Source: Candidatus Omnitrophota bacterium
GTDB lineage: Bacteria > Omnitrophota > Gorgyraeia > Zapsychrales > Fredricksoniimonadaceae
NCBI GenBank assembly: GCA_016201795.1
Contig: JACQCF010000002.1
Coordinates: forward strand, 45,122-109,121
Direction: 5' to 3'
DNA: 64,000 nt
Both the position numbers and the translations under genes were made by a program. Shown piece after piece: positions 4,681 to 42,554 of this stretch. The notes beneath the pieces were generated by a model that had not been told where the DNA came from, searched no databases, and saw nothing but the letters and a program-made list of their open reading frames with translations. Position 1 is the stretch's first letter. Each line of letters starts with the position of its first letter.

Positions 4681-4682
4681 AT

Positions 4683-6580: not shown

Positions 6581-6583
6581 ATC

Positions 6584-10099: not shown

Positions 10100-10935
10100 A
10101 AGTCAGCGCCTTTACCATTGTCCGCAACGCGGTCAAGTTCCATTACCCCATCGCTCAGTCCATACAATCGATTTTGCCCATTTGCGATGAATTTATCGTC
10201 AATGTGGGCGATAGCGAGGATAGAACGCTGGATTTGATCCGCTCCATCCCAAGCTCCAAAATTCGTATTATCCAAACCCAATGGAATATGAGGAAGGGCT
10301 CGATGGTCCTTTCCGAACAGACCAACATCGCCCTGAAAGAATGCAGAGGGGATTGGGCATTTTATCTGCAAAGCGATGAGGTGATCCACGAAAATGATTT
10401 GTCGCGCTTGAAGCAATGGATGCAGCGTTTCTTGAAAGTTGACGGAGTGGATGCCTTGCGTTTTAAATGGCTGCATTTTTACGGTAGTTATTGGCGCTAC
10501 CGCATTGATGCGGGGTGGTATCAGAAACAAGACCGTATTATCCGTAACAACGGCCAGATCGAATCCTATGGGGATGCGTTTGCGTTTAGGCGTCGTGACG
10601 GGCGGCCGCTATGCAGCCGGCCAACGGGGTGTTTATTGTACCATTACGGCTGGGTCAATACCGTCGAAGATATGAAGGGCCGCTGCCATAATGCGGCGCA
10701 AATCGGTTATCAGGATGCAAACAAATTACAATCGTTGGAAGGCGGTTGGGGAGACTTGAGCCGTTTCCCGGCGTATTTTGGTACGCATCCATTGGTCATG
10801 AAGGACTTGATTGCCAGGCATGCCCTCAGCGTGCAGGATTGGGCAAGTGTCAGCCGTCAATTTTGGTGGAACCCTCTGTTTTGGATGCGCCTGCGGCACA
10901 AGACATCCCGGCGTATCAGAGAGAAAATCACATGA
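10096..10935 (+). CDS. Putative GT-A fold glycosyltransferase (GT2-like)
   Basis: N-terminal FTIVRNA...IVNVGDSED resembles GT2 N-termini. A weak call. Confidence 0.4.
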   Translation: MKVSAFTIVRNAVKFHYPIAQSIQSILPICDEFIVNVGDSEDRTLDLIRSIPSSKIRIIQTQWNMRKGSMVLSEQTNIALKECRGDWAFYLQSDEVIHENDLSRLKQWMQRFLKVDGVDALRFKWLHFYGSYWRYRIDAGWYQKQDRIIRNNGQIESYGDAFAFRRRDGRPLCSRPTGCLLYHYGWVNTVEDMKGRCHNAAQIGYQDANKLQSLEGGWGDLSRFPAYFGTHPLVMKDLIARHALSVQDWASVSRQFWWNPLFWMRLRHKTSRRIREKIT

Positions 10936-12623: not shown

Positions 12624-13237
12624 ACATGAAATTGCATGTGGGCTGTGGGACTAATAAAATACCCGGGTGGGTCAATATCGACGCTGTTGAAAGCTGCCAG
12701 CCCGATCTTATCCATGATTTAAGCAAGCCCCTGCCTTACCCCGATTTGTCAGCGGACGAGCTCAGGGCTGAGAGCGTTCTGGAACATTTCGACAAATACA
12801 TGAGGTATTGCGTGTGCAGTGACTGGGTAAGGGTGTTGAAGGTAGGAGGGTTTATCCATATAGGCGTGCCGGATTTCAAAAAGCTGCTGTTTCGTTTTTT
12901 TAAATTCCGTTTTGATGATTTCGTCGACACTTTTTTCGGCGAGAATATGTGGGAGTCAGAAATTTATATCGGGCATTTCGGCAATCATAAATGGGGGTAT
13001 TCACAAAAGTCCTTAACGGCATTTCTGGGGCAATTCGGCATTGAACCGGTGGAGGTCAAAACCATAGGGTTAAATATTCATTTTGTAGGTCGTAAACTTA
13101 AGCATGTGTCCACCCGGGACATGGACCAGTGGAAGATTTATTCTCATAACAACAAATTCGGCGCACCCCGTCATTACCTGACGTTCGCCGAGGTTAAAGC
13201 GAAAATCAATGAGTTTCAGAAAGATTCTGCTTATTAA
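12620..13237 (+). CDS. Class I SAM-dependent methyltransferase
   Basis: HVGCG...ESVLEHFD motifs. Paralogous in position and motif to 9377-10099. Confidence 0.6.
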   Translation: MNMKLHVGCGTNKIPGWVNIDAVESCQPDLIHDLSKPLPYPDLSADELRAESVLEHFDKYMRYCVCSDWVRVLKVGGFIHIGVPDFKKLLFRFFKFRFDDFVDTFFGENMWESEIYIGHFGNHKWGYSQKSLTAFLGQFGIEPVEVKTIGLNIHFVGRKLKHVSTRDMDQWKIYSHNNKFGAPRHYLTFAEVKAKINEFQKDSAY

Positions 13238-14261
13238 TCCTTACGGCATCGGGGATGTGTTGTTTACCACTCCCGTTGTGGGCAATTTGCGTAAAAGCTA
13301 TCCGCAGGCTTTTATTGGCTATATCGCTAACCGTCGGGCTTTGCCGGTGGTGGAAAGCAATCCCAAAATCAATCACGTTTATGTGTATGAGCGTGATGAA
13401 TTTAAGGACGATTTTGTCCGTCGCTGGGTGAGTCTTTTTCAAGATATACGACGACAAAAATTCGATGTTGTTTTTGATTTCTCTTTGAATGCTTCCTTTG
13501 GATTTTTGAGCATGATTTGCGGCATAAGCAAGCGTATTGGTTATGATTACCGAGGTCGGGGCTGGCTTTTAACGGATAAAATTCGGTTAGAAGGCTATGA
13601 AGCAAAGCATGTGGTGGAATATTATCTGGATTTATTGACGAAACTTGACGTACCGGTGCAAGATCGCTCTTTGGAGTTTTTGATTGACCAGCAACATCAG
13701 CAATGGGCTAAAGATTGGATTAAAACCAAAGGGATTTCATCCAATCAACCAATCATTGCCCTCATCCCTGGCGGGGGAGCCAGCTGGGGCAAGGATGCCA
13801 GCCAGAAACGCTGGCCCGCCGGGCAATACGCGCTTTTGGTGGATAAAATTATTGCAAAATCAAACAGCGCCGTTATACTGATGGGCGATCAAAAAGAGCA
13901 GTTGTTGTGTCAAGAATTTGCCCGCCGATGCTCTTATCCCGTCTTTGATGCGGTTGGAGGTACAACCCTTTTGCAGATGGCTGCCTTACTGCAACAATGC
14001 CGTCTGGCGATTGTTAATGACGGAGGACCTTTGCATGTGGCGGTGGCGTGCGGTGTCAAGACGGTTTCTATCTTTGGTCCGGTGGATCCGGTGGTTTACG
14101 GCCCCTACCCATCGTCGGGACATATTTTTATTCAAAAAGGACTGCCTTGCCAGCCGTGTTACCGTCAGTTTCGCCGGGCCGCCTGTAACCATATCAGCTG
14201 TTTGAGGGACTTATCAGTCGATGAGGTTTACGATAAAGTAGAGAGATTTTTAGTTGATTGA
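13209..14261 (+). CDS. GT9 family heptosyltransferase (ADP/GDP-heptose:glycan heptosyltransferase)
   Basis: N-terminal KILLINPYGIGDVLFTTPV and C-terminal GNDGGPLHVAVACGVKTVSIFG motifs of RfaF/WaaC-like enzymes. Confidence 0.75.
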   Translation: MSFRKILLINPYGIGDVLFTTPVVGNLRKSYPQAFIGYIANRRALPVVESNPKINHVYVYERDEFKDDFVRRWVSLFQDIRRQKFDVVFDFSLNASFGFLSMICGISKRIGYDYRGRGWLLTDKIRLEGYEAKHVVEYYLDLLTKLDVPVQDRSLEFLIDQQHQQWAKDWIKTKGISSNQPIIALIPGGGASWGKDASQKRWPAGQYALLVDKIIAKSNSAVILMGDQKEQLLCQEFARRCSYPVFDAVGGTTLLQMAALLQQCRLAIVNDGGPLHVAVACGVKTVSIFGPVDPVVYGPYPSSGHIFIQKGLPCQPCYRQFRRAACNHISCLRDLSVDEVYDKVERFLVD

Positions 14262-14302
14262 GTCCCGAGCCTGTCGAGGGATAGAAAGGTCGAGGCATTA
14301 TT

Positions 14303-15403
14303 ATGAGCGTTCCGTTTATTGATTTTAAAGAACAACACCGCCTGATCCAAAACGAGGTGGATACGGGTTTTAAAAAAGTTTTTGAAAAAGGCGATTATAT
14401 TTTAGGCGAGCAAGCTGTTATCTTCGAGGGCGCTTTTGCTAAATATTGCGATTGTGCTTATGGGGTGGGTGTCAATTCCGGTACCGACGCGTTGTATTTG
14501 GCCCTTTGCGCATTGGATATTGGCCCAGGTGATGAAGTGATTGTGCCTACCTTCACTTTTATTGCTACGGCATTGTGCGTTTCGTTTTGCGGTGCTCAAG
14601 CGGTGTTCGTCGACGTTGAGCCGGATACTTACAACATTGACCCTCAGGCATTCGCCAGGGCCATTACCAAGAAAACTAAAGCGGTGATTCCAGTGCACAT
14701 CTATGGTCAGCCGGCGAACATGAATGAAATCTCTGCCATTGCCCGCAAGCACGATATTAAGGTGGTTGAGGATGCAGCTCAGGCCCATGGTTCGCGTTAT
14801 CAGGGCAAGCGCGCGGGATCCCTGGGGGATGTGGCGTGTTTCTCTTTTTATCCGACCAAAAGTCTGGGCGCTTGCGGGGATGCCGGAATGATTGTCACCA
14901 ACGACAAGGCGATTTATCAGAAGGCGCTGATGCTGCGCGATTACGGCAGAAAGGGCCGTTATGAACATAAGATTAAAGGGCATAATTCCCGTCTGGATAC
15001 TCTGCAAGCGGTGGTGCTCAATGCCAAATTAAAACATCTGGATGCATGGAATACTTTACGCGCCCAAAACGCTGTTTATTACAATGAGCTTCTTAAAGGC
15101 GTCAAAGGCGTGGTCACGTCGGTTGTCAAAAGTGACCGTACCCACGTTTATCAGACGTATGCCGTGCGGGTGGCCAACCGCGATAAGGTCATGGAAGGGA
15201 TGAAGGCCAAAGGAATCAGCGTCCTTATCCATTATCCGATTCCTCTACACCTTCAGGAAGCCTATCAAGAGTTAGGTTATCAAAAAGGAGCTTTTCCCTT
15301 CGCGGAAGCCGTGGCTGATGAGATCATGTCTTTGCCGATGTTTCCTCACATGAGCAGGGAGCAAATTGAAACCGTGGTGAGGGCTTTGAAAGAATCTTTA
15401 TGA
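14303..15403 (+). CDS. DegT/DnrJ/EryC1/StrS family aminotransferase
   Basis: GTDALYLAL, VPTFTFIAT, EDAAQAHGS and the Lys-containing FSFYPTKSLGA motif. Confidence 0.8.
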   Translation: MSVPFIDFKEQHRLIQNEVDTGFKKVFEKGDYILGEQAVIFEGAFAKYCDCAYGVGVNSGTDALYLALCALDIGPGDEVIVPTFTFIATALCVSFCGAQAVFVDVEPDTYNIDPQAFARAITKKTKAVIPVHIYGQPANMNEISAIARKHDIKVVEDAAQAHGSRYQGKRAGSLGDVACFSFYPTKSLGACGDAGMIVTNDKAIYQKALMLRDYGRKGRYEHKIKGHNSRLDTLQAVVLNAKLKHLDAWNTLRAQNAVYYNELLKGVKGVVTSVVKSDRTHVYQTYAVRVANRDKVMEGMKAKGISVLIHYPIPLHLQEAYQELGYQKGAFPFAEAVADEIMSLPMFPHMSREQIETVVRALKESL

Positions 15404-16752
15404 ACAAGGCTTTGCATATTTGCGACAGGTTGATGTACGGCGCTTTGCTGGTGCTGGTAATTTTTATTCCCTATTCGCTGGCCATGATCGAAGCATGTCT
15501 GTTGACGATAATACTAGCTTGGGTACTGAAACATTGGTTATTATGGAAAGCCAATCCACAACGAGGATTTTGGGCGGCCTATCGTTTTTCGCCCAGCGGG
15601 ATGGAATGGCCCTTAATCGTCATAGGGTTTCTCATCGTTGCGACCTTACCGTGGAGTCATGCTCCTGCTTTGAGTTTAAAGAAATTCTTCTCAAGGTTTC
15701 TGCAGCAGGCATTTTTGATGTATGCCGTCGTTGAGATTGTCAAGACCCATCGGCGTTTATACGGGGTCATGGCAACCTTATTGCTGACGCTTTTTGTGGT
15801 CAATGCGGATATTTTTGTGCAGTATATGCGAGGCTACAGTTTTATTTATCATACCCCGCTGACGTCTGGGCGGGTGTTGGGGCCGATGCATCACCCCAAT
15901 GATTTGGGGACGTTGCTGGTGATGGTGTTGCCTGTGGTGTTGGCTTTGATCATCACACACCGTTATTGGATTCCATTGTTATGGTCTCGTGCGACGCAGG
16001 TGTCCCGTGGCTTATGCACCATGGGGACGGTGGCGGAGGTGGTGTTGTTTTTACTATTGGTCATCGCGCTTGGGTTAACGGCTTCGCGGGGGGCATGGAT
16101 AGCTTTTGCGGTGAGCATGGTTGGCCTAGGCGTTTGTTTGAAACGGTATTGGTCAACTGTTTTACTTATTTTGATGCTGGTTGTGGTATTTTGGGTCTTT
16201 TGGGGACATAGCCTGCATCAGCGTCATGATATTCAAGATGTTTCTTTAGGAACTCAGACTAAGTACAGCAGTATAAGCCTATCTCCCCAGTATGAGAAGA
16301 GTCTGTTGGTTTTTTTCAATCCTTCGGGCCGGTATTTCTATTGGGAAACAGCTTGGGATATTATTAAACGTTATCCGCTGTTTGGCTGCGGCTATAGCGC
16401 TTATGTCCAGACGCTCAATGTTTTGAAGGCGGGGCACGCGGAATATCCTCACAATATCTTATTGCATATTACGGCGGAACTTGGTCTCTTTGGTTTGCTG
16501 GCGCATCTATGGTTTTTTACAGCTTTATATTTATGTGCTAGGAGAGTGTTGCGTGCGGTTTTCTCTGCCTATGATTTGTATATACTCGGATGCGGGATAT
16601 GTTTTGGACTTTTGGCGTGGATAATCCATAGTCTGACAGATACGGCTTGGACATCTTTGCAGTTGAGCATCTTATGGTGGTTATTGATAGGGATTTTGTT
16701 GAGCCTTGTCTCTGTTTTTCATCAATCAACATCGCCACGGGGAGGTTCCTAG
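15400..16752 (+). CDS. O-antigen ligase / Wzy-like polymerase family membrane protein
   Basis: Multi-TM protein with the O-antigen ligase domain signature (GRYFYWETAW...YPHNILLHITAELGLFGLL). Confidence 0.7.
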   Translation: MNKALHICDRLMYGALLVLVIFIPYSLAMIEACLLTIILAWVLKHWLLWKANPQRGFWAAYRFSPSGMEWPLIVIGFLIVATLPWSHAPALSLKKFFSRFLQQAFLMYAVVEIVKTHRRLYGVMATLLLTLFVVNADIFVQYMRGYSFIYHTPLTSGRVLGPMHHPNDLGTLLVMVLPVVLALIITHRYWIPLLWSRATQVSRGLCTMGTVAEVVLFLLLVIALGLTASRGAWIAFAVSMVGLGVCLKRYWSTVLLILMLVVVFWVFWGHSLHQRHDIQDVSLGTQTKYSSISLSPQYEKSLLVFFNPSGRYFYWETAWDIIKRYPLFGCGYSAYVQTLNVLKAGHAEYPHNILLHITAELGLFGLLAHLWFFTALYLCARRVLRAVFSAYDLYILGCGICFGLLAWIIHSLTDTAWTSLQLSILWWLLIGILLSLVSVFHQSTSPRGGS

Positions 16753-17537
16753 TGTCCTTGCCATTGAGTATTATCATTATTGCCAAAAATGAGCAGGAGC
16801 GTATCAAAGATTGTCTTGAAAGCGTGCATGGATGGGCCAATGAAATCATCGTCGTTGATGATCACAGTACAGACCAGACGCGTTCGATGGCTGCTGCGTA
16901 TACTGACAAGATTTTCCAGCGGGCGATGGATTTGGAAGGCCGACAGCGCAATTTCGCAGTTTCCCATGCCAGCAATGATTGGGTGATGATGCTCGATTGT
17001 GACGAGCGTCCCACCCCTGAACTTAAAGGAGAGATCGAGGATTTGCTTGGCCACCCTCCGGAAAAAATCGTAGCGTTTTGGATACCGCAAATTTGTTTTT
17101 TAGGAGATGTGCATATCAAATACGGAGGATGGTCCAATCCACATATCCGTTTGTACCACAAGAAATACGTGACCTGGAGCGAGGCTGCCTGTGATGTGGT
17201 TCATCCGGGGGTGCGTGTGGCGCCCGGTTACGGGGGAGCAAATTTGAAACAGGCGCTTATCCATTACAACTATAAGAATGTCGAGGATGTCATCCGCAAG
17301 ACAAATCGTCTCACCACCCTGGAGGCCATCAAATGGCACCTCGATGGGCGCAAGATGACGCAGGGGCGCGCGATGTGGCGTACCGTGGATAGGTTTTTCC
17401 GTCGTTATGTGGGACGCAAGGGGTATAAGGATGGTTATTACGGTCTGGTGCTGGCGGTATTTAGCGCCGTGTATGAGTTCGCCGCGTACAGCAAATACAA
17501 GGAAATCAAAGAAAAAGGCTATTACCTTAAACCATGA
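16752..17537 (+). CDS. Family 2 glycosyltransferase
   Basis: LSIIIIAKNEQERI...VVDDHSTDQT GT2 signature. A probable GTG start at 16752 overlaps the upstream stop (TAGTG), with GGAGG 7 nt upstream. The ORF-track ATG at 16647 would overlap the ligase gene by about 100 nt. Confidence 0.7.
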   Translation: MSLPLSIIIIAKNEQERIKDCLESVHGWANEIIVVDDHSTDQTRSMAAAYTDKIFQRAMDLEGRQRNFAVSHASNDWVMMLDCDERPTPELKGEIEDLLGHPPEKIVAFWIPQICFLGDVHIKYGGWSNPHIRLYHKKYVTWSEAACDVVHPGVRVAPGYGGANLKQALIHYNYKNVEDVIRKTNRLTTLEAIKWHLDGRKMTQGRAMWRTVDRFFRRYVGRKGYKDGYYGLVLAVFSAVYEFAAYSKYKEIKEKGYYLKP

Positions 17538-18121
17538 AAGTAGTTTTTCTTGACAGAGACGGCGTGATTAACGAATTTCCGGGTAAAGACAATTACGTGA
17601 CGAAAGTCAAAGACTTTCATTTTATTCCCGGAGCGGCGGAAGCCATCGCGCGCCTCAGCCAGGCAGGATATAAGATTTTTGTGATTTCTAATCAGGCTGG
17701 CGTGGGTAAAGGGGTTTATTCGCTGGACAAACTCAATCGTATCAACCGTTATATGATGAAGCATGTTGAGGCTGCCGGCGGAGAAATCCGAAAAAGTTTT
17801 TACTGCACCCACCGCGCCGATGCGGGCTGCGACTGCCGCAAGCCAGGCATAGGTCTTTTAAAGAAGGCGCTTCAATCTCTCAATAAAACCATTGCCCATG
17901 CGCAAAAGGCTTTTTTCGTTGGTGATACCGAAGGCGATATTAAAACCGGCCATAATGCCGGATGCAAAACGGTTTTTGTGCTTTGTGGGCGTGAAAGCCG
18001 CCGGCATATGCGTCAATGGCACATCAAGCCCGATTTTATCGCTTCGGATTTAAAAACCGCGGTTGACATTATCCAACATGAAAATTCTGGTCATTCACGC
18101 CACAGCAGGGGCCGGGCATAA
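17534..18121 (+). CDS. gmhB: D-glycero-D-manno-heptose 1,7-bisphosphate phosphatase (HAD-IIIA)
   Basis: FLDRDGVIN HAD motif I, and GVGKG plus the C-rich zinc site CDCRKPG typical of GmhB. Confidence 0.75.
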   Translation: MKVVFLDRDGVINEFPGKDNYVTKVKDFHFIPGAAEAIARLSQAGYKIFVISNQAGVGKGVYSLDKLNRINRYMMKHVEAAGGEIRKSFYCTHRADAGCDCRKPGIGLLKKALQSLNKTIAHAQKAFFVGDTEGDIKTGHNAGCKTVFVLCGRESRRHMRQWHIKPDFIASDLKTAVDIIQHENSGHSRHSRGRA

Positions 18122-19160
18122 AAAGGCGGCAGAGGCCATTTATAATGGCCTGTTGCGCCACACCACGCATATTGTCCGTTTGGTGGATTCCCTCGATTAT
18201 ACCAATCCTTTTTTTAAAGCCGCGTATCCTAAGACCTATGTCTTTTTAGTCACGAAACTTCCGATGCTCTGGGGATTTTTCTTTTGGCTTTCCGATCTTG
18301 CTTTATTACAACCGTTGATACGCTGGATCAGGCGCTGTTACAATGCTTCAAATACTAAGGCGCTGGAGAAATTTTTGAAAGATGAAGATTTTGATGCCAT
18401 TATTGTGACTCATTTTATGTCCGCGGAGGTTGGCGCTTATTTAAAACGCACCCGGCAGATCCGTGCGAAGGTGATTTGTGTGGTGACAGACTTTAATGTA
18501 CATCGTATTTGGATTAATCAGGGTACTGATCTTTACACGGCGGCTTGCGATGACACCAAAGAGAAAATCATCAGCCTTGGAATCAGCCCTGATCAGGTGT
18601 TCGTGACCGGTATTCCCACCGACGAAAAATTTACTGTGATGACTGATCGTCGTCAGATAAGAGAAGCTCTTAAAATTGATCCACAGCTTTTCACGGTGCT
18701 TTTAGCCACGGGCTCTTTCGGGGTCGGCCCTATGGAAGAACTGGTGGATTTGCTCAAAGGTTATCAGCTGCTCATTGTTTGCGGACATAATCGCCTTTTG
18801 TACGAACGCCTTAAATCCAGAATTAATAGCAAGGTTCACGTATTTGGTTTGGTCAACAATATGCATGAACTGATGTCTGCGGCGGATGTCATGGTCACTA
18901 AACCAGGAGGACTCTCCATCGCCGAAGCTCTGGTCAAAAGGCTGCCGATTATTTTTTTTAGTGCCATTCCCGGACAGGAGACTGGCAACATTAAAGTGCT
19001 TCAAAAGTACCAGGCGGCCTCACCGCAAGGATCTTTGATGGATATCGTCGATAAAATTGATGATTTAAGTTCTTCCCTGCAAGTTTACGAGGCCATGCAA
19101 AAGAAGCTTGAGGCGCTTGCCAAACCTGATGCGGTACGGGACATTATTTCATTAATATGA
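18078..19160 (+). CDS. GT28 family glycosyltransferase (MGDG-synthase / UgtP-like diacylglycerol or lipid glycosyltransferase)
   Basis: N-terminal MKILVIHATAGAGHKKAAEAI (MGDG_synth domain) and a C-terminal GT28 region. The start is ambiguous (18063 or 18078) and overlaps the end of gmhB. Confidence 0.55.
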   Translation: MKILVIHATAGAGHKKAAEAIYNGLLRHTTHIVRLVDSLDYTNPFFKAAYPKTYVFLVTKLPMLWGFFFWLSDLALLQPLIRWIRRCYNASNTKALEKFLKDEDFDAIIVTHFMSAEVGAYLKRTRQIRAKVICVVTDFNVHRIWINQGTDLYTAACDDTKEKIISLGISPDQVFVTGIPTDEKFTVMTDRRQIREALKIDPQLFTVLLATGSFGVGPMEELVDLLKGYQLLIVCGHNRLLYERLKSRINSKVHVFGLVNNMHELMSAADVMVTKPGGLSIAEALVKRLPIIFFSAIPGQETGNIKVLQKYQAASPQGSLMDIVDKIDDLSSSLQVYEAMQKKLEALAKPDAVRDIISLI

Positions 19161-19162
19161 TT

Positions 19163-19187
19163 TTCCCCTCCCCTGGTGGGAGGGGAA
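19163..19187 (+). terminator. GC-rich hairpin (TTCCCCTCCCC-TGGT-GGGAGGGGAA) immediately after the last gene of island 1; candidate terminator or structured element
   Basis: A perfect 10-11 bp inverted repeat 3 nt after the stop at 19160. No clean U-tract follows. Confidence 0.35.
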
Positions 19188-19236
19188 TGGGGAGGGGTAT
19201 CGACGGAGATCATCGTTTTTATGCCCCCCGCCCTAA

Positions 19237-19258
19237 CCCTCCCCACACAGGGGGAGGG
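19237..19258 (+). promoter_or_regulatory. Second GC hairpin (CCCTCCCC-ACACA-GGGGAGGG) in the priA-like 5' region
   Basis: Inverted repeat of the same CCCCTCCCC/GGGGAGGGG word family as 19163-19187. A TATAAT lies at 19294-19299, just before the ATG at 19312. Confidence 0.3.
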
Positions 19259-19311
19259 AATCTAATGACAAAACGCTAAATATATTGAAGACCTATAATC
19301 TGTAACCTGAT

Positions 19312-21108
19312 ATGATTGCCCAAGTTGTTTTTGATCTGCCTTTAGAAGGCCCTTTCGATTATCTGATTCCTTCTTCCTTAAAATCTTCCATCGCTCCTGG
19401 TTTGCGCGTGAACGTATTGTTAGGCACTAAAAAACGCACAGGCCTGGTGACGGGTTTATTAGAGCAAAGTTCTTTTGAAAATTTAAAATCTATTAAATCT
19501 GTCATCGATGAAAAACCACTGTTAGATCAAGCCCAGATGGATTTAGGATCAGATTTGAGCCGTTATTACGGCTGTTCTTTGGGAGAGGCGCTTTTTACTA
19601 TTTTACGCGGATCTTCTGTTATTGAATCAAGTGTCATTGCGAGGAGCGAAGCGACGAAGCAATCTAATAAGATTGCCACGCTCCCTGCGGTCGCTCGCAA
19701 TGACAACAATGACAAACTAACACTACATGTTGTTCCTTCAGGAGATTATGTACCCATTCTGGTTTCTGTCATGAAACCTTTGGTGCAAAGAAAGCAGCGG
19801 GTATTGATTTTAGGGCCGGATCAGTTTGCCGTCCAAGCGATACAGGAGGCCTTAAAGAAATATTTCTCCAAAAATGATTACTTCATCGGCGCAAGATCAA
19901 TGGTGTTTCGTTCTTTGATGGGCATAGCTTTGGTGATGATGGTCGATGAGGACAACCCTTCTTATAAACAGGAACAAACTCCCCTCTATGAAACCCGTCA
20001 GGTACTTTTGATGCGCGCCAAGAGGGAGAATATCGATGTTGTCTTTATCAGCGCTACCCCGTCGGTGGAAATCATGGATTTGGTACACAAAGGCAAAATT
20101 CATCTCAAGAACTATCCGGCCAGGGGTCTGGTCAAACCGCAGGCCGTTGATTTAAATAATTACAAAATACTTTTGAAGGGGCTTTTGTCGCCGGCGGTTT
20201 TGTCAGCGCTTGAACGCAATGTCTCTGGCGGGACAAAATCGATTTTAGTGTTTAATCATCGCGGTTCTTATGCGGTCACCCGTTGCAGCGAGTGTGGTTT
20301 TGTACTCAAATGCGGGCGTTGTGACAGCCCCATGCTCTACTGGCGAGCCAAGAAACAATACTTCTGCCGCCATTGCTCTTTTCATTGTGAGCCAGACATT
20401 GTTTGCCCTCATTGCCAGGTGCCCAGTTGGAAATCTTTTGGTCTTGGCATTGAGCCATTGCAAAAAGCCTTGCAGGAAAAGTTTCCGACGTCAAGGATCC
20501 TGACTTTTGAGAGGCGCTCGCCACAGATTTTAAAGGATTATGATATTCTCGTCGGTACTTCGGCGCTTTTGCGGTTTAAATATCAGATACAAGCCGCACT
20601 GGTGGTGCTTTTGGATATCGATGAGGAACTTAATCGTTTGGACATACGCTCCTGTTTTCGTGCTTTTAGTCTGGCCGGGCATTTAAGAGGTATGGCCCAG
20701 GGACAGTTTTTGATTCAGACTCGTCATCCCAACCATTATGTGATCAAATCCTTTAGCGAAGATGACGCGGATATCTTTTACCGCGAAGATATGCGTATCC
20801 GCCGGGAACTGGCACTTTGCCCGTTTGGCCATCAGGTGATGATTCACCTGCGCTCTTTGCAGCAAAAACTGGGCCAACAAGCAGCGCAAGAACTTTATCA
20901 AGCATTGAACTCTTTGTCGTCCCCGAATGTTTCTATGAAGATTCACGCCCCCGTGGCGGAAGCGGTGGCTAAAAAGCGGGATCAATATCGTTTGAATATT
21001 CTGGTGCAAGGCGAGGATGTTATTGATATGATAGCCTTTATTAAAAAAGCCATGAGGCAGACCAAACGCCGCAGTAAGGTCATAGTAGTTTTAAATGTTG
21101 ATCCGTAG
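19312..21108 (+). CDS. Primosomal protein N' (PriA) homologue with degenerate helicase motifs
   Basis: Colinear with PriA: an N-terminal 3' DNA-binding domain, a helicase core and the Cys-rich zinc region (CSECGFVLKCGRCDSPM...CRHCSF...CPHCQ). Walker A reads VVPSGDY instead of GxGKT, motif II reads DEDN instead of DEEH, and motif VI reads LAGHLRG instead of QxAGRAGR. Confidence 0.75.
   Translation: MIAQVVFDLPLEGPFDYLIPSSLKSSIAPGLRVNVLLGTKKRTGLVTGLLEQSSFENLKSIKSVIDEKPLLDQAQMDLGSDLSRYYGCSLGEALFTILRGSSVIESSVIARSEATKQSNKIATLPAVARNDNNDKLTLHVVPSGDYVPILVSVMKPLVQRKQRVLILGPDQFAVQAIQEALKKYFSKNDYFIGARSMVFRSLMGIALVMMVDEDNPSYKQEQTPLYETRQVLLMRAKRENIDVVFISATPSVEIMDLVHKGKIHLKNYPARGLVKPQAVDLNNYKILLKGLLSPAVLSALERNVSGGTKSILVFNHRGSYAVTRCSECGFVLKCGRCDSPMLYWRAKKQYFCRHCSFHCEPDIVCPHCQVPSWKSFGLGIEPLQKALQEKFPTSRILTFERRSPQILKDYDILVGTSALLRFKYQIQAALVVLLDIDEELNRLDIRSCFRAFSLAGHLRGMAQGQFLIQTRHPNHYVIKSFSEDDADIFYREDMRIRRELALCPFGHQVMIHLRSLQQKLGQQAAQELYQALNSLSSPNVSMKIHAPVAEAVAKKRDQYRLNILVQGEDVIDMIAFIKKAMRQTKRRSKVIVVLNVDP
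19633..19703 (+). mobile_element. MITE-like palindromic repeat element inserted in frame within the priA-like CDS (copy 1)
   Basis: GTCATTGCGAGGAGCGAAGCGACGAAGCAATC...GCTCCCTGCGGTCGCTCGCAATGAC has terminal inverted repeats and a near-identical copy at 35103-35193. It encodes the low-complexity insert VIARSEATKQSNKIATLPAVARND. Confidence 0.7.
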
Positions 21109-21140
21109 GGGCGATTAATAATCGCCCGTACAAGGAGAAT

Positions 21141-22064
21141 ATGCGCATTGTATTTTTCGGTAGCGATGATTTTGCCGCTGTCTGTTTAAAAGAGCTTGAA
21201 CAAAGTTCCCATCAGGTTATTGGCTGTGTGACTGCGCCTGATGCTCGCCAAGGCCGGGGAATGAGGCTCGCTCTTTCTCCCATTAAAGCAATCGCCTTGG
21301 GAGCCAATCTTCTTTGCCTTCAGCCGCCGTCGCTCAAAGAAGAGGCTATAGTTAGCCAGCTTCAAGCCCTTGAAGCGGATATTTTTGTGGTGGTTGCTTA
21401 CGGAAAAATTCTAACCCAGACGGTTTTGAATATACCCAAAATTTTTTGTGTGAATGTTCACGGTTCTTTGCTTCCTCACTACAGGGGAGCGGCGCCGATC
21501 AACTGGGCGATCATCAACGGCGATCATCAAACAGGGGTGACCATCATGAAGGTCAATACGCGTATGGACGCCGGAGATATCATCAGCCAAAAGACCATCC
21601 CTTTATCAGAACATATCACTGCCGACCAATTACGGACACAAATGGCTCGGGTGGGAGGCAAGCTCTTGGTTAAAACGTTAGATGATATCCAGACCGGCCA
21701 CTATACTTGTACGGCTCAGGACGAATCTAAAGCCACCTTGGCCCCTAAATTAACTAAAGAGATGGGACGCATTCATTGGCAACAATCAGCCGAGGCGATT
21801 GATCAGCTCATCCGCGGCCTTAAGCCCTGGCCAGGAACATTTGCCACCTATAAGGACAAGATGCTTAAAATTTTGGAAGCCTCGGTGGTTAAGATGGAAG
21901 GCAAGCCAGGGACGGTGGTGGATATTGGCAAAGAAGGCTTTGTCGTCGCTTGCGGCCAGGATAGCCTTTTGGTCAAATGCGTTCATCCGCAGGCGGCCAA
22001 GATCATGCCGGCTTATGATTTTGTGCAAGGATATCGTTTGATGGCTGGTGAGCAGCTAACATAA
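21141..22064 (+). CDS. fmt: Methionyl-tRNA formyltransferase
   Basis: N-terminal RIVFFGSDDFA and the SLLPHYRGAAPINWAI formyltransferase core, with a C-terminal Fmt domain. Confidence 0.9.
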   Translation: MRIVFFGSDDFAAVCLKELEQSSHQVIGCVTAPDARQGRGMRLALSPIKAIALGANLLCLQPPSLKEEAIVSQLQALEADIFVVVAYGKILTQTVLNIPKIFCVNVHGSLLPHYRGAAPINWAIINGDHQTGVTIMKVNTRMDAGDIISQKTIPLSEHITADQLRTQMARVGGKLLVKTLDDIQTGHYTCTAQDESKATLAPKLTKEMGRIHWQQSAEAIDQLIRGLKPWPGTFATYKDKMLKILEASVVKMEGKPGTVVDIGKEGFVVACGQDSLLVKCVHPQAAKIMPAYDFVQGYRLMAGEQLT

Positions 22065-22083
22065 TTTGGGTTAAAATTACCTT

Positions 22084-23070
22084 ATGCCTCAAATACGTAA
22101 AGATTTCATCGTCAATCGTTGGGTGATTGTGGCTACCGAGCGGGGGCGTCGTCAGGCCGCGTTTGTGAGTCCGGTCAATCAGCAAACAGATCCTCACGAT
22201 TGTCCGTTTTGTCAGCCGATCGCTGACACTCCGCTTTTAGCCAACGACCGGGTGAGGGTTTTTAAAAGCGGCACACCTTTTTTTGTGGATGGAAAGCCTT
22301 TCAGCCGCCAGAGGCATGGCTTGTATGAAGTTTCTTCCAGCTGGGGCAGTCACGAGGTAGTTTTGGAAACCACTGATCACGTGGCCAATATGTCTGACTT
22401 GGCCCTTGAGGATATTCAGAAGGTTTTTGAAACCTATGCCCAGCGGATGCGCCTGCACCGCCAGGATCCGTCGATTCGTTATGTATTGGCTTACAAAAAT
22501 TACGGGGTTGCTGCCGGCAGCCGTCCTATCGGGCATGCCCGTTCGCAGATTATGGCTATTCCCGTTAATCCCGTGCGCGTCAAAGATAAAATCAGCGGCG
22601 CCAAACGTTATTTCGATTTTCATGAACGCTGCCTGTTTTGCGATTTGATTGATCAGGAACGTAAAGACGGCCAGCGCTTGATTCTGGAAAATGGAGAATT
22701 TTTGGCGCTGATGCCATTTGCCTCGCGGTTTCCTTTTGAAGTCTGGATTGTGCCCAAACGCCATTGTTGTGATTTTGCCCAAGGGATTACCGGCTATGAA
22801 GGTCAGTTGGCTCAAATAATCAAAGAACTTTTGCTGCGTTTTAAAGTGGGCCTTAATGACCCGGCTTATAATTATCTGATTCAGTCCGCTCCTTTTGAAG
22901 ATGGTGGCGGGTACAAAGAATACCCGACCATTGAAGAAGATTATCACTGGCATATCGAATTACTGCCGCGGTTAATGCGAGTGGCTGGTTTTGAGCGCGG
23001 GACAGGATTTTATATTAATCCCATTCCACCGGAGATGACGGCAGAGTTTTTAAGGGAAGTGAAAATTTAA
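22084..23070 (+). CDS. Galactose-1-phosphate uridylyltransferase-like HIT-superfamily protein (paralog 1; nucleophilic His replaced by Arg)
   Basis: CPFC zinc motif. The HxHxQ active-site block reads GHARSQ, so the position of the nucleophilic His (E. coli GalT H166) is Arg. Confidence 0.65.
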   Translation: MPQIRKDFIVNRWVIVATERGRRQAAFVSPVNQQTDPHDCPFCQPIADTPLLANDRVRVFKSGTPFFVDGKPFSRQRHGLYEVSSSWGSHEVVLETTDHVANMSDLALEDIQKVFETYAQRMRLHRQDPSIRYVLAYKNYGVAAGSRPIGHARSQIMAIPVNPVRVKDKISGAKRYFDFHERCLFCDLIDQERKDGQRLILENGEFLALMPFASRFPFEVWIVPKRHCCDFAQGITGYEGQLAQIIKELLLRFKVGLNDPAYNYLIQSAPFEDGGGYKEYPTIEEDYHWHIELLPRLMRVAGFERGTGFYINPIPPEMTAEFLREVKI

Positions 23071-23073
23071 TCC

Positions 23074-24072
23074 ATGCCTCAACTGCGTCGAGACCCAATA
23101 GTAGGCCGCTGGATAGTGATCGACAGCGATCATCCCAAAGAGCCAAAAGATTTTCCCAAAGAAGATCAAACGCCGTCTCATGCCGCGGTATGTCCGTTTT
23201 GCCCGCAGCGGGAGAGCCGCACGCCGCCAGAACTGGATGCCGTACGCCCCAACGGATCCGGGCCTAATACCTCTGACTGGCAGATACGCACTATACCTAA
23301 TAAGTTTCCCGCTTTGGTTCATGAAGAGCCTATGGAAAAAGAAGGGATAGGGATGTTTGATGTGATCTCCGGCTACGGCGCCCATGAGGTGGTTATTGAA
23401 ACGCCTGATCATAACAGACAAATGGCGGATCTCACCATCCAGGAATTGGTACTTGTTTTAAATCAATACCAGCGTCGCTATAAAGCTTTAGCTTCTGATG
23501 CGCGGCTAAAATACATCGTGATTTTTAAAAATTTCGGCCCCTCCGCCGGAGCGACCATCGAGCACAGCCATTCGCAGGTCATTGCTTTGCCCATGGTGCC
23601 CAAAACGGTGTTGGAAGAAATAGAGGGGGCTGAGCATTATCATCTGAGCCACGGTGCTTGTGTGTTTTGCACGATGTTAGCCCAAGAATATCAAGACAAA
23701 GATCGTCTGATATCAGAGAATAATTCTTTTGTTAGTTTTTGTCCGTTCGTGCCGCGGTATGCTTTTGAGACGTGGATGATGCCCAAAGCCCATCAGGCGC
23801 ATTTTGCCGATCTCAATGAGCAGGGAGTTCATGATCTGGCTTCTGGGCTTTTGGATACGTTAAACCGCATCAAAAAATGTTTATCGAACCCATCCTATAA
23901 TTTTTATTTGCATACCTCACCGATCAATTACGGCCGGCCCAACTGTTACCACTGGCACATTGAAATTATCCCCAAATTGACCCGCAGCATCGGTTTTGAA
24001 TGGGGCACGGGCTTGCACATTGTGCCGACGTTTCCCAATGAAGCCGCTCGGTATTTAAGGGACGCTAGATAG
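23074..24072 (+). CDS. Galactose-1-phosphate uridylyltransferase-like HIT-superfamily protein (paralog 2; intact HxHxQ)
   Basis: CPFC zinc motif and an intact EHSHSQ (HxHxQ) motif. In tandem with paralog 1, with a 3-nt gap. Confidence 0.7.
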   Translation: MPQLRRDPIVGRWIVIDSDHPKEPKDFPKEDQTPSHAAVCPFCPQRESRTPPELDAVRPNGSGPNTSDWQIRTIPNKFPALVHEEPMEKEGIGMFDVISGYGAHEVVIETPDHNRQMADLTIQELVLVLNQYQRRYKALASDARLKYIVIFKNFGPSAGATIEHSHSQVIALPMVPKTVLEEIEGAEHYHLSHGACVFCTMLAQEYQDKDRLISENNSFVSFCPFVPRYAFETWMMPKAHQAHFADLNEQGVHDLASGLLDTLNRIKKCLSNPSYNFYLHTSPINYGRPNCYHWHIEIIPKLTRSIGFEWGTGLHIVPTFPNEAARYLRDAR

Positions 24073-24593: not shown

Positions 24594-27500
24594 ATGAAAC
24601 TTGAAGAATTCTCACTCAAACAGCCACATTGGGTTATTGTCGGGGCCCTTTTGGTGGTTATTATTGGCGTAGTCTGCATGACCAGGCTCCCTAAAGATAT
24701 TTTACCCATTTTTAAAATTCCGGCCGTACAAATCATTACGTTTTACCCGGGAATGCCCGCGGAGGTCGTCGAGAAAGATATGACCACCCGCCTTGAACGC
24801 TGGACGGGTCAATCCAATGGAATAGCCATGCAAGAATCCAAATCCATGATTGGGGTGAGCATCCTGAAAGATTTTTTTCGATCCGATATTGATCCAAATA
24901 CCGCCATGTCGCAGGTCACGTCCTTTGCGATGTCCGATCTTTATTATCTGCCACCGGGGACAATTCCTCCGATGGTTATGCCTTTTGATCCGACGGCAAG
25001 CATTCCATTGGCTCTTTTGACCGTTGAGAATCCTGACATGAATGAAACCCAGCTTTATGACGTGGCGTATTTTAATTTGCGCAATATGCTTCAGGGCATC
25101 CCCGGTGTCATTGCGCCGGCGGTTTACGGCGGTAAGCTCCGTCGTATTTTGGCCTATATTGATCCCTACAAAATGACCCAGCTCAATGTTTCAGGACTTG
25201 ATGTTGTTCAAGCTCTTCTTGAGTCCAATGTCATGATTCCCACGGGAAACGCGAAGTTCAAAGACAAGGACTATCAAATCATTACCAATGCCATGCCCGA
25301 GAACGTTGATACCATGAACCAATTTTTGATAAGAGGAGAAAATGGCGTTCCAATAACAATAGGAGACGTGGGAAAGGTCGAAGACAGTCATCAAATCCAG
25401 ACCAACGTGGTTCATATCGCGGGTAAACGGCAGGTCTATATTCCTATCTACAGACAGCCAGGCGCCAATACGATTCAAATTATTGACAGCATGAAATCTG
25501 CCATCCAATCCCTGTTAGAACGGCTCCCCAGGGGAATGAGTTTGAAAATTGTCGCCGATCAATCGCAGTTTGTTCGCCAGTCGATCAAAAGTATTTATAG
25601 TGAAGTGGGGTTGGGAGGCGTTTTGGCTTCCCTGGTTGTCTTGATTTTTTTAGGAAGCTTGCGAGCTTCTTTCGCTGTTTTTCTTTCTATTCCTCTTTCC
25701 ATCTTGACGTGTTTTATCGCTCTTTATGCCACAGGAGAAACGATTAACGCAATGACGTTAGGAGGATTGGCTTTGGCCGTTGGAATCCTCATTGATAATT
25801 CCGTGGTTGTTTTGGAGAATTCGATCCGTCATTTCAAAATGGGGAAACCCATTCGGCAAGCCATTTTAGAGGCCACAGGTGAAGTGGCGATGCCTGTTCT
25901 GGCGGGTACGGTCTGTATTATCATCGTATTTATTCCCATTATTTTTTTTACCGGAATCGGTAAGTTTCTGTTTACGCCTTTAGCAAAAAGCGTGGCTTTT
26001 TCCGTCTTGGCCTCTTATGTGGTTTCTATGACGATCATTCCATTATATTGTGTGAGATTTATTTCAGAAAAGCATCGTGAAAAATCATCAGAAAAGGGAC
26101 ATGAAGGAAGATTCAATCGGTTTGCCCAGCGTTACCAAAAGTCCCTTTCTTCTCTAATGAAGATAAAAGGTGTTGTTATTTTTGCGGCGGTCATACTTTT
26201 TTGTGCCAGTCTCTTTCTTTATCCGTTCATCGGGAAAGAGCTTTTCCCTCGTTCAGATGTCGGTTACTTGACCCTTTATTTACATCTTCCGACCGGAACT
26301 CGTATTGAAAAAACCGAAGAGACCATGAAAAAAGTTGAACAGAGTTTAAATAATCTAATCAACACCAATAACATTGACACGATGATCACGAATATCGGCG
26401 TTTTATATGATTGGCCAGCAGCCTATACGCCCAATTCAGGCCCCGGAGATGCGTTTGTTGAATTGGAATTATCGCATAAAAAGAAATTCTCAACGGAGGA
26501 ATATGCAACTAAGATTCGGGAATTATTTAAGCGGGAATACCCGGATATCCAGATTGCCATTAATACGGGGGGGCTCATTACGGCTGCTCTTAATATGGGA
26601 CTTAGTTCGCCGATTAATATTCAAGTCGAAGGCAAGGACTTAAAGACTTCGATGCCGATTGCCGAGGAAATTGTTAAGCAAGCAAAGGAAGTTAAGGGAG
26701 CAGTTGACGTCAGGATTCAGGAGCATCTTGATTATCCACAAATTGAAATTGAATTAGACCGTGCTGTGATTGCCGAGAAGCGTATGACCGTTGAAGAGGT
26801 CGTCAAAAACATCGTAACGGCGCTTAATTCCAGCGTCAATTTCAAAGCATCATTCTGGATCGATCCTAAAAATGGGAACCATTATTTTCTTGGAGCGCAA
26901 TATCCTGAGGAATTAATTAAGAGTATAGAGACGTTGGAAAATCTCCCATTGACAGGAAAGAATCAGAAACAGATCGTCCTTTTAAAAGAGATTGCCAAAT
27001 TCAAAGAAACTTCGGCTCCATCGGAAATTAGGCATAGAAACATTCAGAGGGTTGTGAATATTTTTGTCAACACCAGCGGCCGGGATGTGGGGGCAGTCGC
27101 TTCCGAGATCAGCCAGCGTATCAAAGATATTAAATTGCCGGATGGATATCGCATTAATGAACGGGGAGAAGTTCAATCAATGCAGGAGTCGTTTCAAAAC
27201 CTCGGCGGCGGTCTGATGTTGGCTGTGATTTTGGTTTACCTCGTCTTGGTCGGGCAGTTTCGTTCATTCCGCGATCCCTTATTAATTCTCATCGCTGTTC
27301 CGATGGGGTTGATCGGAGTTCTACTGACATTGTGGTTAACCAAAACAACGCTTAATGTTCAATCTTTTATTGGAATTATTTTTATGGTGGGGATTGCTGT
27401 TTTAAACGGTATTCTCCTTATTGAATTTGCCAATCGCTTAAAAAGTGAAGGGCAAAGTGCTCAAGAGGCCGTAATTAATGCGGCCGGAGTCCGATTGCGG

Positions 27501-29036
27501 CCTATCCTTATGACGACATGTGCCGCTTTGTTTAGCTTGCTTCCTATGGCTATTGGGTTGGGGCATGGTTCTGAAGCTAATGTACCTTTAGGACGTGCTG
27601 TGGTCGGAGGACTTTCGGTTTCCGCAGTATTGACGTTGATCATTCTTCCCTTGCTTTACGTTCTTGTTGAAAAAATGAAGTTTTCTAAAACCAGCAACCC
27701 TCTGGTTAAAATCATGTTTATATTTTTTGTTATGAGCTTCATCTCAACCACTACCTTTGCTGAAGATGCGCAGGCTTCTGCCAAAGGGAAAGTTTTAACA
27801 CTGCAAGAGGCGTTGGAAAAATCGCTCAGTCAAAATCCTAAGATCATGATCGCCAAAGCCAAGACCGCCCAAGCCCAGGCGGAGGTTGATATGGCTAAGT
27901 CAGGGTATTGGCCGCGGCTGAATTTATCGGCAATGGATAGCTACGGTCTTGGGAGTTCTTCATCAGCCATCGGAATCACAGGAGTTGTCAATTCTACTCA
28001 CCGTAAAGGCGGTGCCGTTGGGGTAGATAGCGCCTGGACGATTTATGATTTCGGTCGCACCTCCAATAAGGTACAGGCCGCTCGAGAGGAAGCCCAGGCC
28101 CAGGATAAGGACATGGAACGGCAAATGGCGCAGATAAAGCTTATGATTAGCCGTACCTACGGGGAATGCGCGTTTTATACAGGATTCAATCATCTTTTGA
28201 CAGATAGGATAGAACGCCAAAAGCTCCTGGTTGAGGAAATTCAAAAATACACCCGTTCGGGCTTAAATTCTCAGGTCGATCTAAAATTGATGCAGGCGGC
28301 TTTTGAAAAAACTCGTGCTATACAAAGAGAATCCGAGGGATTTTTATATCAGTCCATCGATAAACTTAAAGAGTGGATGGGAGACTCTCATATGGAATCA
28401 TTTGTCTGTGTGCCTTTGCCTGAGATATCCACAGAAGTTCTAGCGTTAGATGCATTGATTACGCAGGCATTGAAGGAACGTCCGGAAATCAAAACAGCCC
28501 AAAAGCATTATGAAGCGGCACAGGCTTCCCGGTGGTCAGCAGAAGGTGAGCATGCACCAAAGATTGTAGCGGTCTCAAGTGTCGGTGAATTAGAGAAGAC
28601 CGACCCAGCTGGGGGGGATCAATGGTCGGCCGGTATCGGGGTTACGGTGCCTTTTTTCGATGGATTTCTAACCGAGGCTAAAATCGCCAAGGCCAAAGCG
28701 CAAGAGGCGGAAGCCAAAGCCTCCTTGGAAGAGGTACGTAATCAGATCCAGCAGGAAGCAGCTTCCTCTTATGCCCAATGGCAAGCAGCCCAACAGATGC
28801 GTCCAATAGTAGAGAAACAATATCAATTAACGAAAGAGGCTTATGATTTGGCGCATCACCGCTATACCGGGAAAATGGGAACGTTTATCGATTTACAAAA
28901 TGCCGAATCTGCTTTTGCTCAAGCCCAGCAGGAAAGTCTGAAGGCACAAATTCAGGAACGGCTGTCTTATTATCAGCTTTTTATTGTTAGCGGAATGAGC
29001 GTGTCCGTTGTCAAAGACAGTGATCAAAATAGATAG
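24594..29036 (+). CDS. RND (AcrB/HAE-family) inner-membrane permease fused in frame to a TolC-like outer membrane efflux protein
   Basis: Residues 1-1027 have 12 TM helices with two large periplasmic loops (AcrB/CzcA fold). From the ATG at 27675 there is a signal-peptide-like MKFSKTSNPLVKIMFIFFVMSFISTTTFA, then a two-repeat OEP/TolC domain. There is no stop codon between the two parts. Confidence 0.75.
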   Translation: MKLEEFSLKQPHWVIVGALLVVIIGVVCMTRLPKDILPIFKIPAVQIITFYPGMPAEVVEKDMTTRLERWTGQSNGIAMQESKSMIGVSILKDFFRSDIDPNTAMSQVTSFAMSDLYYLPPGTIPPMVMPFDPTASIPLALLTVENPDMNETQLYDVAYFNLRNMLQGIPGVIAPAVYGGKLRRILAYIDPYKMTQLNVSGLDVVQALLESNVMIPTGNAKFKDKDYQIITNAMPENVDTMNQFLIRGENGVPITIGDVGKVEDSHQIQTNVVHIAGKRQVYIPIYRQPGANTIQIIDSMKSAIQSLLERLPRGMSLKIVADQSQFVRQSIKSIYSEVGLGGVLASLVVLIFLGSLRASFAVFLSIPLSILTCFIALYATGETINAMTLGGLALAVGILIDNSVVVLENSIRHFKMGKPIRQAILEATGEVAMPVLAGTVCIIIVFIPIIFFTGIGKFLFTPLAKSVAFSVLASYVVSMTIIPLYCVRFISEKHREKSSEKGHEGRFNRFAQRYQKSLSSLMKIKGVVIFAAVILFCASLFLYPFIGKELFPRSDVGYLTLYLHLPTGTRIEKTEETMKKVEQSLNNLINTNNIDTMITNIGVLYDWPAAYTPNSGPGDAFVELELSHKKKFSTEEYATKIRELFKREYPDIQIAINTGGLITAALNMGLSSPINIQVEGKDLKTSMPIAEEIVKQAKEVKGAVDVRIQEHLDYPQIEIELDRAVIAEKRMTVEEVVKNIVTALNSSVNFKASFWIDPKNGNHYFLGAQYPEELIKSIETLENLPLTGKNQKQIVLLKEIAKFKETSAPSEIRHRNIQRVVNIFVNTSGRDVGAVASEISQRIKDIKLPDGYRINERGEVQSMQESFQNLGGGLMLAVILVYLVLVGQFRSFRDPLLILIAVPMGLIGVLLTLWLTKTTLNVQSFIGIIFMVGIAVLNGILLIEFANRLKSEGQSAQEAVINAAGVRLRPILMTTCAALFSLLPMAIGLGHGSEANVPLGRAVVGGLSVSAVLTLIILPLLYVLVEKMKFSKTSNPLVKIMFIFFVMSFISTTTFAEDAQASAKGKVLTLQEALEKSLSQNPKIMIAKAKTAQAQAEVDMAKSGYWPRLNLSAMDSYGLGSSSSAIGITGVVNSTHRKGGAVGVDSAWTIYDFGRTSNKVQAAREEAQAQDKDMERQMAQIKLMISRTYGECAFYTGFNHLLTDRIERQKLLVEEIQKYTRSGLNSQVDLKLMQAAFEKTRAIQRESEGFLYQSIDKLKEWMGDSHMESFVCVPLPEISTEVLALDALITQALKERPEIKTAQKHYEAAQASRWSAEGEHAPKIVAVSSVGELEKTDPAGGDQWSAGIGVTVPFFDGFLTEAKIAKAKAQEAEAKASLEEVRNQIQQEAASSYAQWQAAQQMRPIVEKQYQLTKEAYDLAHHRYTGKMGTFIDLQNAESAFAQAQQESLKAQIQERLSYYQLFIVSGMSVSVVKDSDQNR

Positions 29037-42549: not shown

Positions 42550-42554
42550 AAATT

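Follow-up and report, generated by a model that had tools for sequence, protein, structure and literature searches.

The priA locus and its product

In a stretch of 64,000 nucleotides from a Candidatus Omnitrophota bacterium (assembly GCA_016201795.1, contig JACQCF010000002.1, positions 45,122 to 109,121 of the forward strand; hereafter the window), we found an orthologue of priA (19312-21108, + strand) whose ATPase motifs are degenerate. The open reading frame (ORF) codes for 598 amino acids. GenBank lists an identical protein, MBI3601336.1, as "primosomal protein N'" from a Candidatus Omnitrophica metagenome-assembled genome (MAG). The protein is a genuine PriA homologue. Pfam recognises both ends of it, the 3' DNA-binding domain (3'BD; PriA_3primeBD, PF17764, residues 4-98, E 2.7e-23) and the C-terminal domain (CTD; PriA_C, PF18074, residues 504-598, E 3.1e-13), and gives no match to the helicase families DEAD (PF00270), ResIII and Helicase_C (PF00271). 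The NCBIfam model TIGR00595 (priA) is passed narrowly (245.8 bits, cutoff 230.35), with a match whose start, model position 75, is already past Walker A, and the score is far under every cutoff of the equivalog models PRK05580 and PRK14873. Among PDB sequences, phmmer retrieved the PriA of Klebsiella pneumoniae and Escherichia coli (E 9e-48), with alignments that cover residues 2-98 and 189-598. The initial annotation of this gene, made from the sequence alone, had described a PriA homologue that retains the cysteine-rich zinc-binding region, and Pfam, TIGR00595, phmmer, the structural model described below and the presence of all eight cysteines bear this out. The name given by the NCBI annotation pipeline (PGAP), "primosomal protein N'", should nevertheless be taken with caution, as it invites reading the protein as a helicase. 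A scan for promoters and terminators around priA gave counts not above those of shuffled sequence.

An AlphaFold2 model built on an alignment of 44 family members (pLDDT 88.7, pTM 0.85) and the Pfam matches give the domain order 3'BD, two RecA-like lobes, a cysteine-rich region (CRR) within the second lobe, and CTD, all coded on the + strand. The 3'BD (19312-19611, residues 1-100) is followed by a fast-evolving linker modelled with low confidence (19612-19716, residues 101-135, pLDDT 49-57) and disordered in the model from about residue 103 to 135. By model and alignment, lobe 1 (19717-20127, residues 136-272) bears a deletion of about 25 residues between motifs Ia and Ib. Lobe 2 (20128-20811, residues 273-500), into which the CRR is inserted (20281-20418, residues 324-369, four CxxC pairs and two predicted Zn sites), has lost 12 residues before motif V and five within motif VI; the model places the inserted CRR at about residues 322-372. 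The CTD (20812-21105, residues 501-598) closes the protein, as seen in both PF18074 and the model. The alignment shows no winged-helix (WH) domain; the canonical PriAs of Omnitrophota are also devoid of it, for which reason we rejected WH loss as part of the transition to a pseudohelicase.

Foldseek matched the model to a PriA structure in each of its nine best PDB hits, led by fork-bound E. coli PriA (8fak_H, E 6.6e-47, TMq 0.87), and the next matches, Mfd, Ski2 and UvrB, are far behind. Considering that the model scores only 0.71 against apo and ADP-bound PriA structures, a protein locked in the fork-bound conformation, pivoted on the CRR, was entertained. We dropped this idea because a control model of P0115 (pLDDT 86.5), a canonical PriA of a sister lineage, shows the same pattern (0.87 to 8fak, 0.73-0.74 to the other states); the preference for 8fak is equal in the control and hence not specific to the degenerate protein.

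Loss of the ATPase motifs

Motifs I, II and VI are found only as remnants. That of motif I, or Walker A (19726-19752, + strand), spans H139-V147 (HVVPSGDYV); the canonical HGVTGSGKTE aligns to H139-VVPSGDYV-P148, GSGKT is gone, neither Gly-rich loop nor Lys or Thr is left, and Y146 occupies the Lys column. In motif II (19942-19956, + strand; V211-D212-E213-D214-N215), the canonical DEEH aligns either to V211-D212-E213-D214, the ungapped register, which places a Val in the column of the Walker B Asp, or to D212-E213-D214-N215, and the His of DExH is lost either way. The motif VI remnant (20671-20703, + strand; L454-G464, LAGHLRGMAQG) aligns with the canonical QVAGRAGRG from H457 (H457-LRGMAQ) and then runs into the five-residue gap, so that the first Arg is replaced by M461 and the second is deleted. 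The degenerate states proposed in the initial annotation thus stand as regards the Walker A Lys, the DExH His and the motif VI Arg, although its registers for motifs I and VI were off by about 1-3 residues.

The same annotation had named intact GKT or DExH motifs elsewhere in the protein as a finding that would speak against it; neither realignment nor a regular-expression search of the whole protein for GK[ST], G.GK, DE.H and GR.GR returned any, so no intact motif is hidden elsewhere in the sequence. One relative, P0009, has a GPGKT at about residue 110, within the disordered linker between the 3'BD and lobe 1, which we judged to be a chance match and not a displaced P-loop.

The loss goes well beyond this single protein. 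Canonical Omnitrophota-type PriAs have 185 alignment columns with a conservation of 95% or more, and against these we compared the degenerate clade, counting a column as retained when kept in at least 80% of clade members and as lost when kept in fewer than 30%. On this scale 64 columns are retained, 98 lost and 23 intermediate. Losses include G152, T154, S156, G157, K158 and T159 of motif I (P0115 numbering), the Glu and Thr of motif Ia, the Walker B Asp, G283 and A285 of motif III (S284 and T286 are intermediate), G470, M473, K476 and G477 of motif V (GxxM..KG), and Q512, G515, R516, G518, R519 and G520 of motif VI. Where motif I should lie, a P-loop is missing from every member of the clade. 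Intact motifs I, II and VI, by which helicases of superfamily 2 are defined, are absent from the window PriA, and on these grounds the protein is predicted to have no ATPase activity.

Several of the former ATP-site columns now hold residues that are conserved within the clade (Y146, D212, A418, R421, F422, H457 and M461). In the column of the canonical Lys, 25 of 73 clade members, the group of the window PriA, have a conserved Tyr, and 36 have an Arg preceded by Lys; in the subclade of loci L024-L060, a conserved H-D-x-x-x-x-K-R-W-P replaces Walker A at the positions equivalent to window residues 139-148. This Lys-Arg pair, present in about half of the members, could be taken as a sign that the enzyme is still an active ATPase and helicase working through non-canonical residues, or through the second, weaker nucleotide site that was proposed for E. 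coli PriA and never located (PMC5778457), and the purifying selection acting on both lobes (see below) would fit such an activity. We find it very unlikely nonetheless. The window PriA has Tyr and not Lys or Arg in that column, the Gly-rich loop is gone together with motifs III and V, and substitution and deletion have removed both motif VI arginines. Furthermore, the exchange of Lys for Arg is enough to abolish the ATPase of E. coli PriA (K230R) and of PriAs of the Deinococcus type (PMC5778457, PMC4504706).

Retained DNA-binding and zinc-binding elements

The elements that contact DNA have been kept. In the 3'BD, F15, D16, Y17 and K59 are invariant or nearly so in the degenerate clade: the pocket residues F15, Y17 and K59 are retained, and D16 is invariant within the clade. 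In E. coli PriA, D17, Y18 and K61 hold the 3' end (PMC5778457). Within the helicase lobes, the clade keeps motif Ib (GxRS; G193, R195, S196 and F199), motif IV (NxxG; N315 and G318) and the motif Va region (D437, N441, D444 and R446, and also T416), as well as Q469-T470 and several residues of the CTD. The aromatic-rich loop, or motif IIa (19960-20016, + strand; S217-R235, SYKQEQTPLYETRQVLLMR), is highly conserved and follows the pattern SYKQ..P.Y..R, with K219, Q220, P224, Y226 and R235 retained; the equivalent loop of E. coli PriA crosslinks to DNA of the fork junction (PMC5778457). All eight cysteines of the CRR (C325, C328, C334, C337, C352, C355, C365 and C368) are present and invariant in the family. 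Such a pattern is to be expected of a protein whose helicase core still has its surface for nucleic acids but no longer its nucleotide site.

Distribution in Omnitrophota and selection

A search of 5.8 billion proteins with the window PriA retrieved about 110 clusters, down to about 30% identity, for which the precomputed Pfam annotation shows the two PriA end domains and nothing else; of the 113 full-length clusters, about 108 are in the degenerate state. We also scanned genomes, one per GTDB species, which yielded 515 relatives, and analysed the 80 best loci, no two of which come from one assembly. The variant is shared by 78 of these 80 loci, all of Omnitrophota type, which answers the question of its conservation in related genomes raised by the initial annotation. 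The Walker A Lys and the motif VI arginines are gone from all 78, and the five-residue deletion in motif VI is common to all of them; the deletion of about 25 residues in lobe 1 of the window PriA is common to 23 sequences. What had been described for a single gene is therefore a trait of a whole clade, with a precedent in Deinococcus-Thermus (PMC4504706).

All 78 independent assemblies have an intact reading frame, at pairwise identities of 27-92%. The ratio of nonsynonymous to synonymous substitutions (dN/dS, Nei-Gojobori) was calculated for six pairs with identities of 80-92% and amounts to 0.12-0.19 overall. By domain, in the four more diverged pairs (values of the two closest pairs are noisy), it is 0.06-0.19 for the RecA lobes, 0.06-0.28 for the CRR and 0.06-0.14 for the CTD, and the linker (residues 101-135, 0.3-1.3) is the sole near-neutral part of the protein. 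Taken singly, lobe 1 has values of 0.12-0.16 and lobe 2 of 0.06-0.16. The degenerate PriA, including both RecA lobes, is under purifying selection. A MAG-derived protein that is about 70 residues shorter than its canonical sisters might be suspected of reflecting a faulty assembly, a frameshift error or a decaying gene, and the initial annotation had asked for assembly errors to be checked. Such an origin is effectively refuted: the frame is open and the degenerate state present in 78 assemblies, dN/dS is about 0.15, the deletions are in-frame and phylogenetically nested, and the AlphaFold2 model is confident.

The loss does not extend to the whole phylum. A search with the canonical P0115, limited to high-scoring matches, gave canonical Omnitrophota-type PriAs among the best 120, of which 118 are full length; xSGKT is present in 118 of these 118 and Q..GR.GR in 117, and many are labelled Omnitrophica. 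Since canonical PriAs with this label exist, the loss marks one large lineage. The NCBI taxonomy assigns no class to the genera concerned. Some database labels at these loci look doubtful. Many assemblies in which the priA locus and its synteny are of Omnitrophota type (L003, L006, L009-L011, L013, L017, L018, L020, L022 and others) go under the title "MAG TPA_asm: uncultured Planctomycetales bacterium" and are probably mislabelled Omnitrophota. The same type of locus is found in L065, titled "Patescibacteria group bacterium".

Synteny, phylogeny and order of loss

The gene for methionyl-tRNA formyltransferase (fmt, 21141-22064, + strand) starts 32 nt downstream of priA, and a glycosyltransferase of family GT28 similar to monogalactosyldiacylglycerol (MGDG) synthases (18063-19160, + strand) is its conserved left neighbour and defines the syntenic slot; the stop of the GT28 gene often overlaps or abuts the start of priA. 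Of the 70 loci that allow a test, 61 have fmt as the next gene after priA, an adjacency also found in the lineages with canonical PriA. Over the 78 loci the gene order is GT9, DegT, (Wzy), GT2, HAD phosphatase, GT28-like, priA, fmt and two galT-like genes. This synteny is unusually stable across the phylum (13209-24072 in the window; L001-L088) and comprises a GT9 heptosyltransferase, a DegT aminotransferase, in some cases a Wzy_C ligase, a GT2 glycosyltransferase, a GmhB-like HAD protein, GT28, priA, fmt and two tandem GalT/HIT-like genes.

The canonical PriAs that come nearest are P0115/P0121, named "Omnitrophica WOR_2 bacterium GWA2_63_20", and P0114, in which GSGKT, DEEH and QVAGRAGRG are intact. 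In the GWA2_63_20 lineage and a related metagenomic one, canonical priA sits in the order HAD, GT28, UDG (a gene of the uracil-DNA glycosylase family), priA, fmt, galT, galT and GAPDH. As the degenerate gene occupies the same slot as canonical priA in its sister lineages, it is the positional orthologue of canonical priA at the ancestral position.

The degenerate PriAs all fall into one clade of a neighbour-joining tree, with the canonical P0115/P0118 group as sister. P0116, represented by one metagenomic sequence, branches off first within this clade; its motifs I, II and VI are substituted, it has none of the deletions, and the UDG gene is still found upstream. This suggests an order of loss in which point substitutions at the ATP site came first, followed by the deletions of 12 residues before motif V and five in motif VI, and finally, in the subclade of the window, by the deletion of about 25 residues between motifs Ia and Ib. 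Some deep members of the clade have a His beside the old DExH position, which fits a drift of motif II after ATP binding had already gone.

Both locus and tree bear on the alternative, raised in the initial annotation, that the genome carries a second, canonical priA. The window copy would then be an accessory paralogue, a regulatory or dominant-negative extra, and helicase-dependent restart would be the task of the gene elsewhere. The window covers only 64 kb of the genome, and canonical PriAs labelled Omnitrophica do exist in databases. Against this, the degenerate gene lies in the exact slot of canonical priA in sister lineages, and the two forms make up reciprocal sister clades, which is not the pattern of a duplication. 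No second priA is found within the 64-kb window, the 80 loci come from 80 different assemblies, and no contig of the best 120 canonical PriAs matches in size a contig with the degenerate gene, which is a weak test. The alternative is weakened by the ancestral slot and by the lack of another priA in the window, and we hold it to be distinctly unlikely.

A gene of the UDG family (PF03167, with a Cys-rich N-terminus) is located directly upstream of priA in both canonical lineages and in P0116 (L081 1320-2003, L085 9384-10049, L088 3538-4233), and looks like a family 4 member. No UDG homologue was detected by tblastn in the window or in 1.29 Mb around the 78 degenerate priA loci. The loss or relocation of this gene coincides with the main pseudohelicase clade.

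The absence of this family-4-like gene from all 78 loci could hint at a rewired DNA metabolism. With the new clade-specific residues conserved at former ATP-site positions, it would suit a PriA that had become a DNA-binding protein outside replication restart, for instance a sensor of forks or 3' ends, in a reduced-genome lineage where restart is handled otherwise. However, the elements by which E. coli PriA recognises forks and assembles the primosome have all been kept, the gene context is that of the canonical lineages except for UDG, and the ATPase-dead PriAs of E. coli and Deinococcus show that restart-type functions need no motor. Such a change of function seems improbable to us.

A putative helicase-independent PriA

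We consider it likely, from the sequence features described, that the window PriA represents the PriA orthologue of a major Omnitrophota lineage, most probably without a further copy, and that it acts as an ATPase-dead scaffold, or pseudohelicase, for fork recognition and helicase loading. The initial annotation had proposed a pseudohelicase able to bind forks or partners and unable to hydrolyse ATP, and the loss of the ATP-site motifs, with the DNA-binding elements kept under purifying selection, argues for the same. The 3'BD pocket would bind the 3' end of the nascent leading strand and so recognise an abandoned fork, and motifs Ib, IV and Va and the aromatic-rich loop of the lobes, together with the CRR and CTD, would hold the lagging-strand template. 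The replicative helicase DnaB would be recruited to this static platform directly or via a loader, with neither translocation nor unwinding by PriA itself. As in the priA300 (K230R) variant of E. coli, it would work only where the lagging-strand template is already single-stranded; elsewhere another helicase would have to clear the nascent lagging strand.

Such a mode of action has been studied in two systems. E. coli PriA variants K230R, K230A and K230D have no ATPase, helicase or translocase activity, but they still bind forks, are near wild type in vivo, support restart by the PriA-PriB pathway both in vivo and in vitro, and assemble PriA-PriB-DnaT primosomes. Loading of DnaB together with PriB, DnaT and DnaC is routinely done with them. 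The helicase is required solely by the PriA-PriC route and by some special substrates (PMC5778457, PMC10175261). In Deinococcus radiodurans, where GKT has become GRT, PriA has no ATPase or helicase activity and binds single-stranded DNA, forks and DnaB (Lopper et al. 2015, PMC4504706). The main review on the subject takes Deinococcus to be the only exception to the conserved helicase activity of PriA (PMC5778457).

The Omnitrophota protein is similar to that of D. radiodurans in being an orthologue without the catalytic Walker A Lys throughout a lineage (there Deinococcus-Thermus), with the difference that the behaviour of the latter was shown by experiment and that of the former is predicted. 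Its origin appears to be independent, its sister being the canonical Omnitrophota PriA of the same locus, in a tree that holds no Deinococcus sequence. It is also more eroded: PriAs of Deinococcus-Thermus keep the P-loop, with GK(T) changed to GR(T), whereas in the degenerate ones of Omnitrophota nothing is left of the P-loop, of motifs III and V or of the motif VI arginines, and their lobes have been trimmed by the deletions of 5, 12 and about 25 residues. The priA300 variants serve as a functional model, although they are laboratory mutants of a single residue in a protein of 732 amino acids that has a WH domain and works with PriB and DnaT, and the Omnitrophota PriA is a natural form of 598 amino acids without WH. 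To our knowledge, PriB and DnaT are not to be expected in the phylum Omnitrophota. With the canonical Omnitrophota PriA (OGX13842.1 of WOR_2 GWA2_63_20; P0115/P0121) it shares the slot, the domain order, the absence of WH and about 29% identity over the full length. The canonical proteins differ in keeping GSGKT, DEEH, SAT, GTQM..KG and QVAGRAGRG, in being about 60-70 residues longer and in having the UDG gene directly upstream.

Some points weigh against the scaffold as the favoured reading. ATPase loss and fork binding are both read from the amino acid sequence, and a second canonical priA, a compensating helicase or a loader could lie outside the 64-kb window. R697 of K. pneumoniae PriA, which we take to be the residue that binds the C-terminal tail of SSB, aligns to a Val in the phmmer alignment, read by hand, so that one partner contact may be altered. 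The new conserved residues at ATP-site columns also hint at a function of the cleft beyond that of a simple scaffold. The cleft could have been repurposed, with Y146, H457, M461, R421 and F422 in the group of the window, or HD..KRW in another subclade, locking the lobes independently of nucleotide or forming a docking surface; PriA would then load DnaB directly, in a reduced-genome lineage devoid of PriB, DnaT and other adaptors. We think this unlikely.

No earlier report turned up in literature searches on Omnitrophota together with PriA or on degenerate Walker A motifs of PriA, and two major papers on Omnitrophota genomes make no mention of PriA, the primosome or helicases. The pseudohelicase PriA of Omnitrophota appears to be a second, independent and more eroded case after Deinococcus, seemingly unreported. 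Specialists may not be greatly surprised by it, given priA300 and the Deinococcus PriA; it is still a useful natural experiment. The canonical sisters in the same locus and the deletion-free intermediate amount to a natural series of deletions and mutations, and the 64 surviving positions out of the 185 invariant in canonical PriAs would mark what the helicase-independent job of PriA needs, that is, fork recognition and helicase loading. A compact PriA of 598 amino acids, with neither WH domain nor predicted ATPase, is a candidate for structural and biochemical study of how DnaB is loaded without PriB and DnaT.

Other genes in the window

Five ORFs gave no Pfam match at E <= 1e-5: 7707-9380, 10746-12623, 12620-13237, 36045-37142 (- strand) and 37252-37797, of 557, 625, 205, 365 and 181 amino acids, respectively. 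An ORF of 1480 amino acids at 24594-29036 (+ strand) codes for a full AcrB-type transporter of the resistance-nodulation-division (RND) family (ACR_tran, residues 5-1025, E 1.7e-221) followed by two C-terminal stretches similar to TolC-like outer membrane efflux proteins (OEP), so that inner-membrane pump and outer-membrane factor are found in one polypeptide. Further along, the gene set at 39625-48310 (+ strand) resembles those for the biosynthesis of nonulosonic acids of the pseudaminic or legionaminic type. It includes a Polysacc_synt_2 dehydratase, two DegT aminotransferases, a CTP_transf_3 cytidylyltransferase, a GFO/IDH/MocA oxidoreductase, GNAT acetyltransferases and a NeuB synthase. 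Together with the region 422-18121, this set makes surface-glycan synthesis the content of most of the window.

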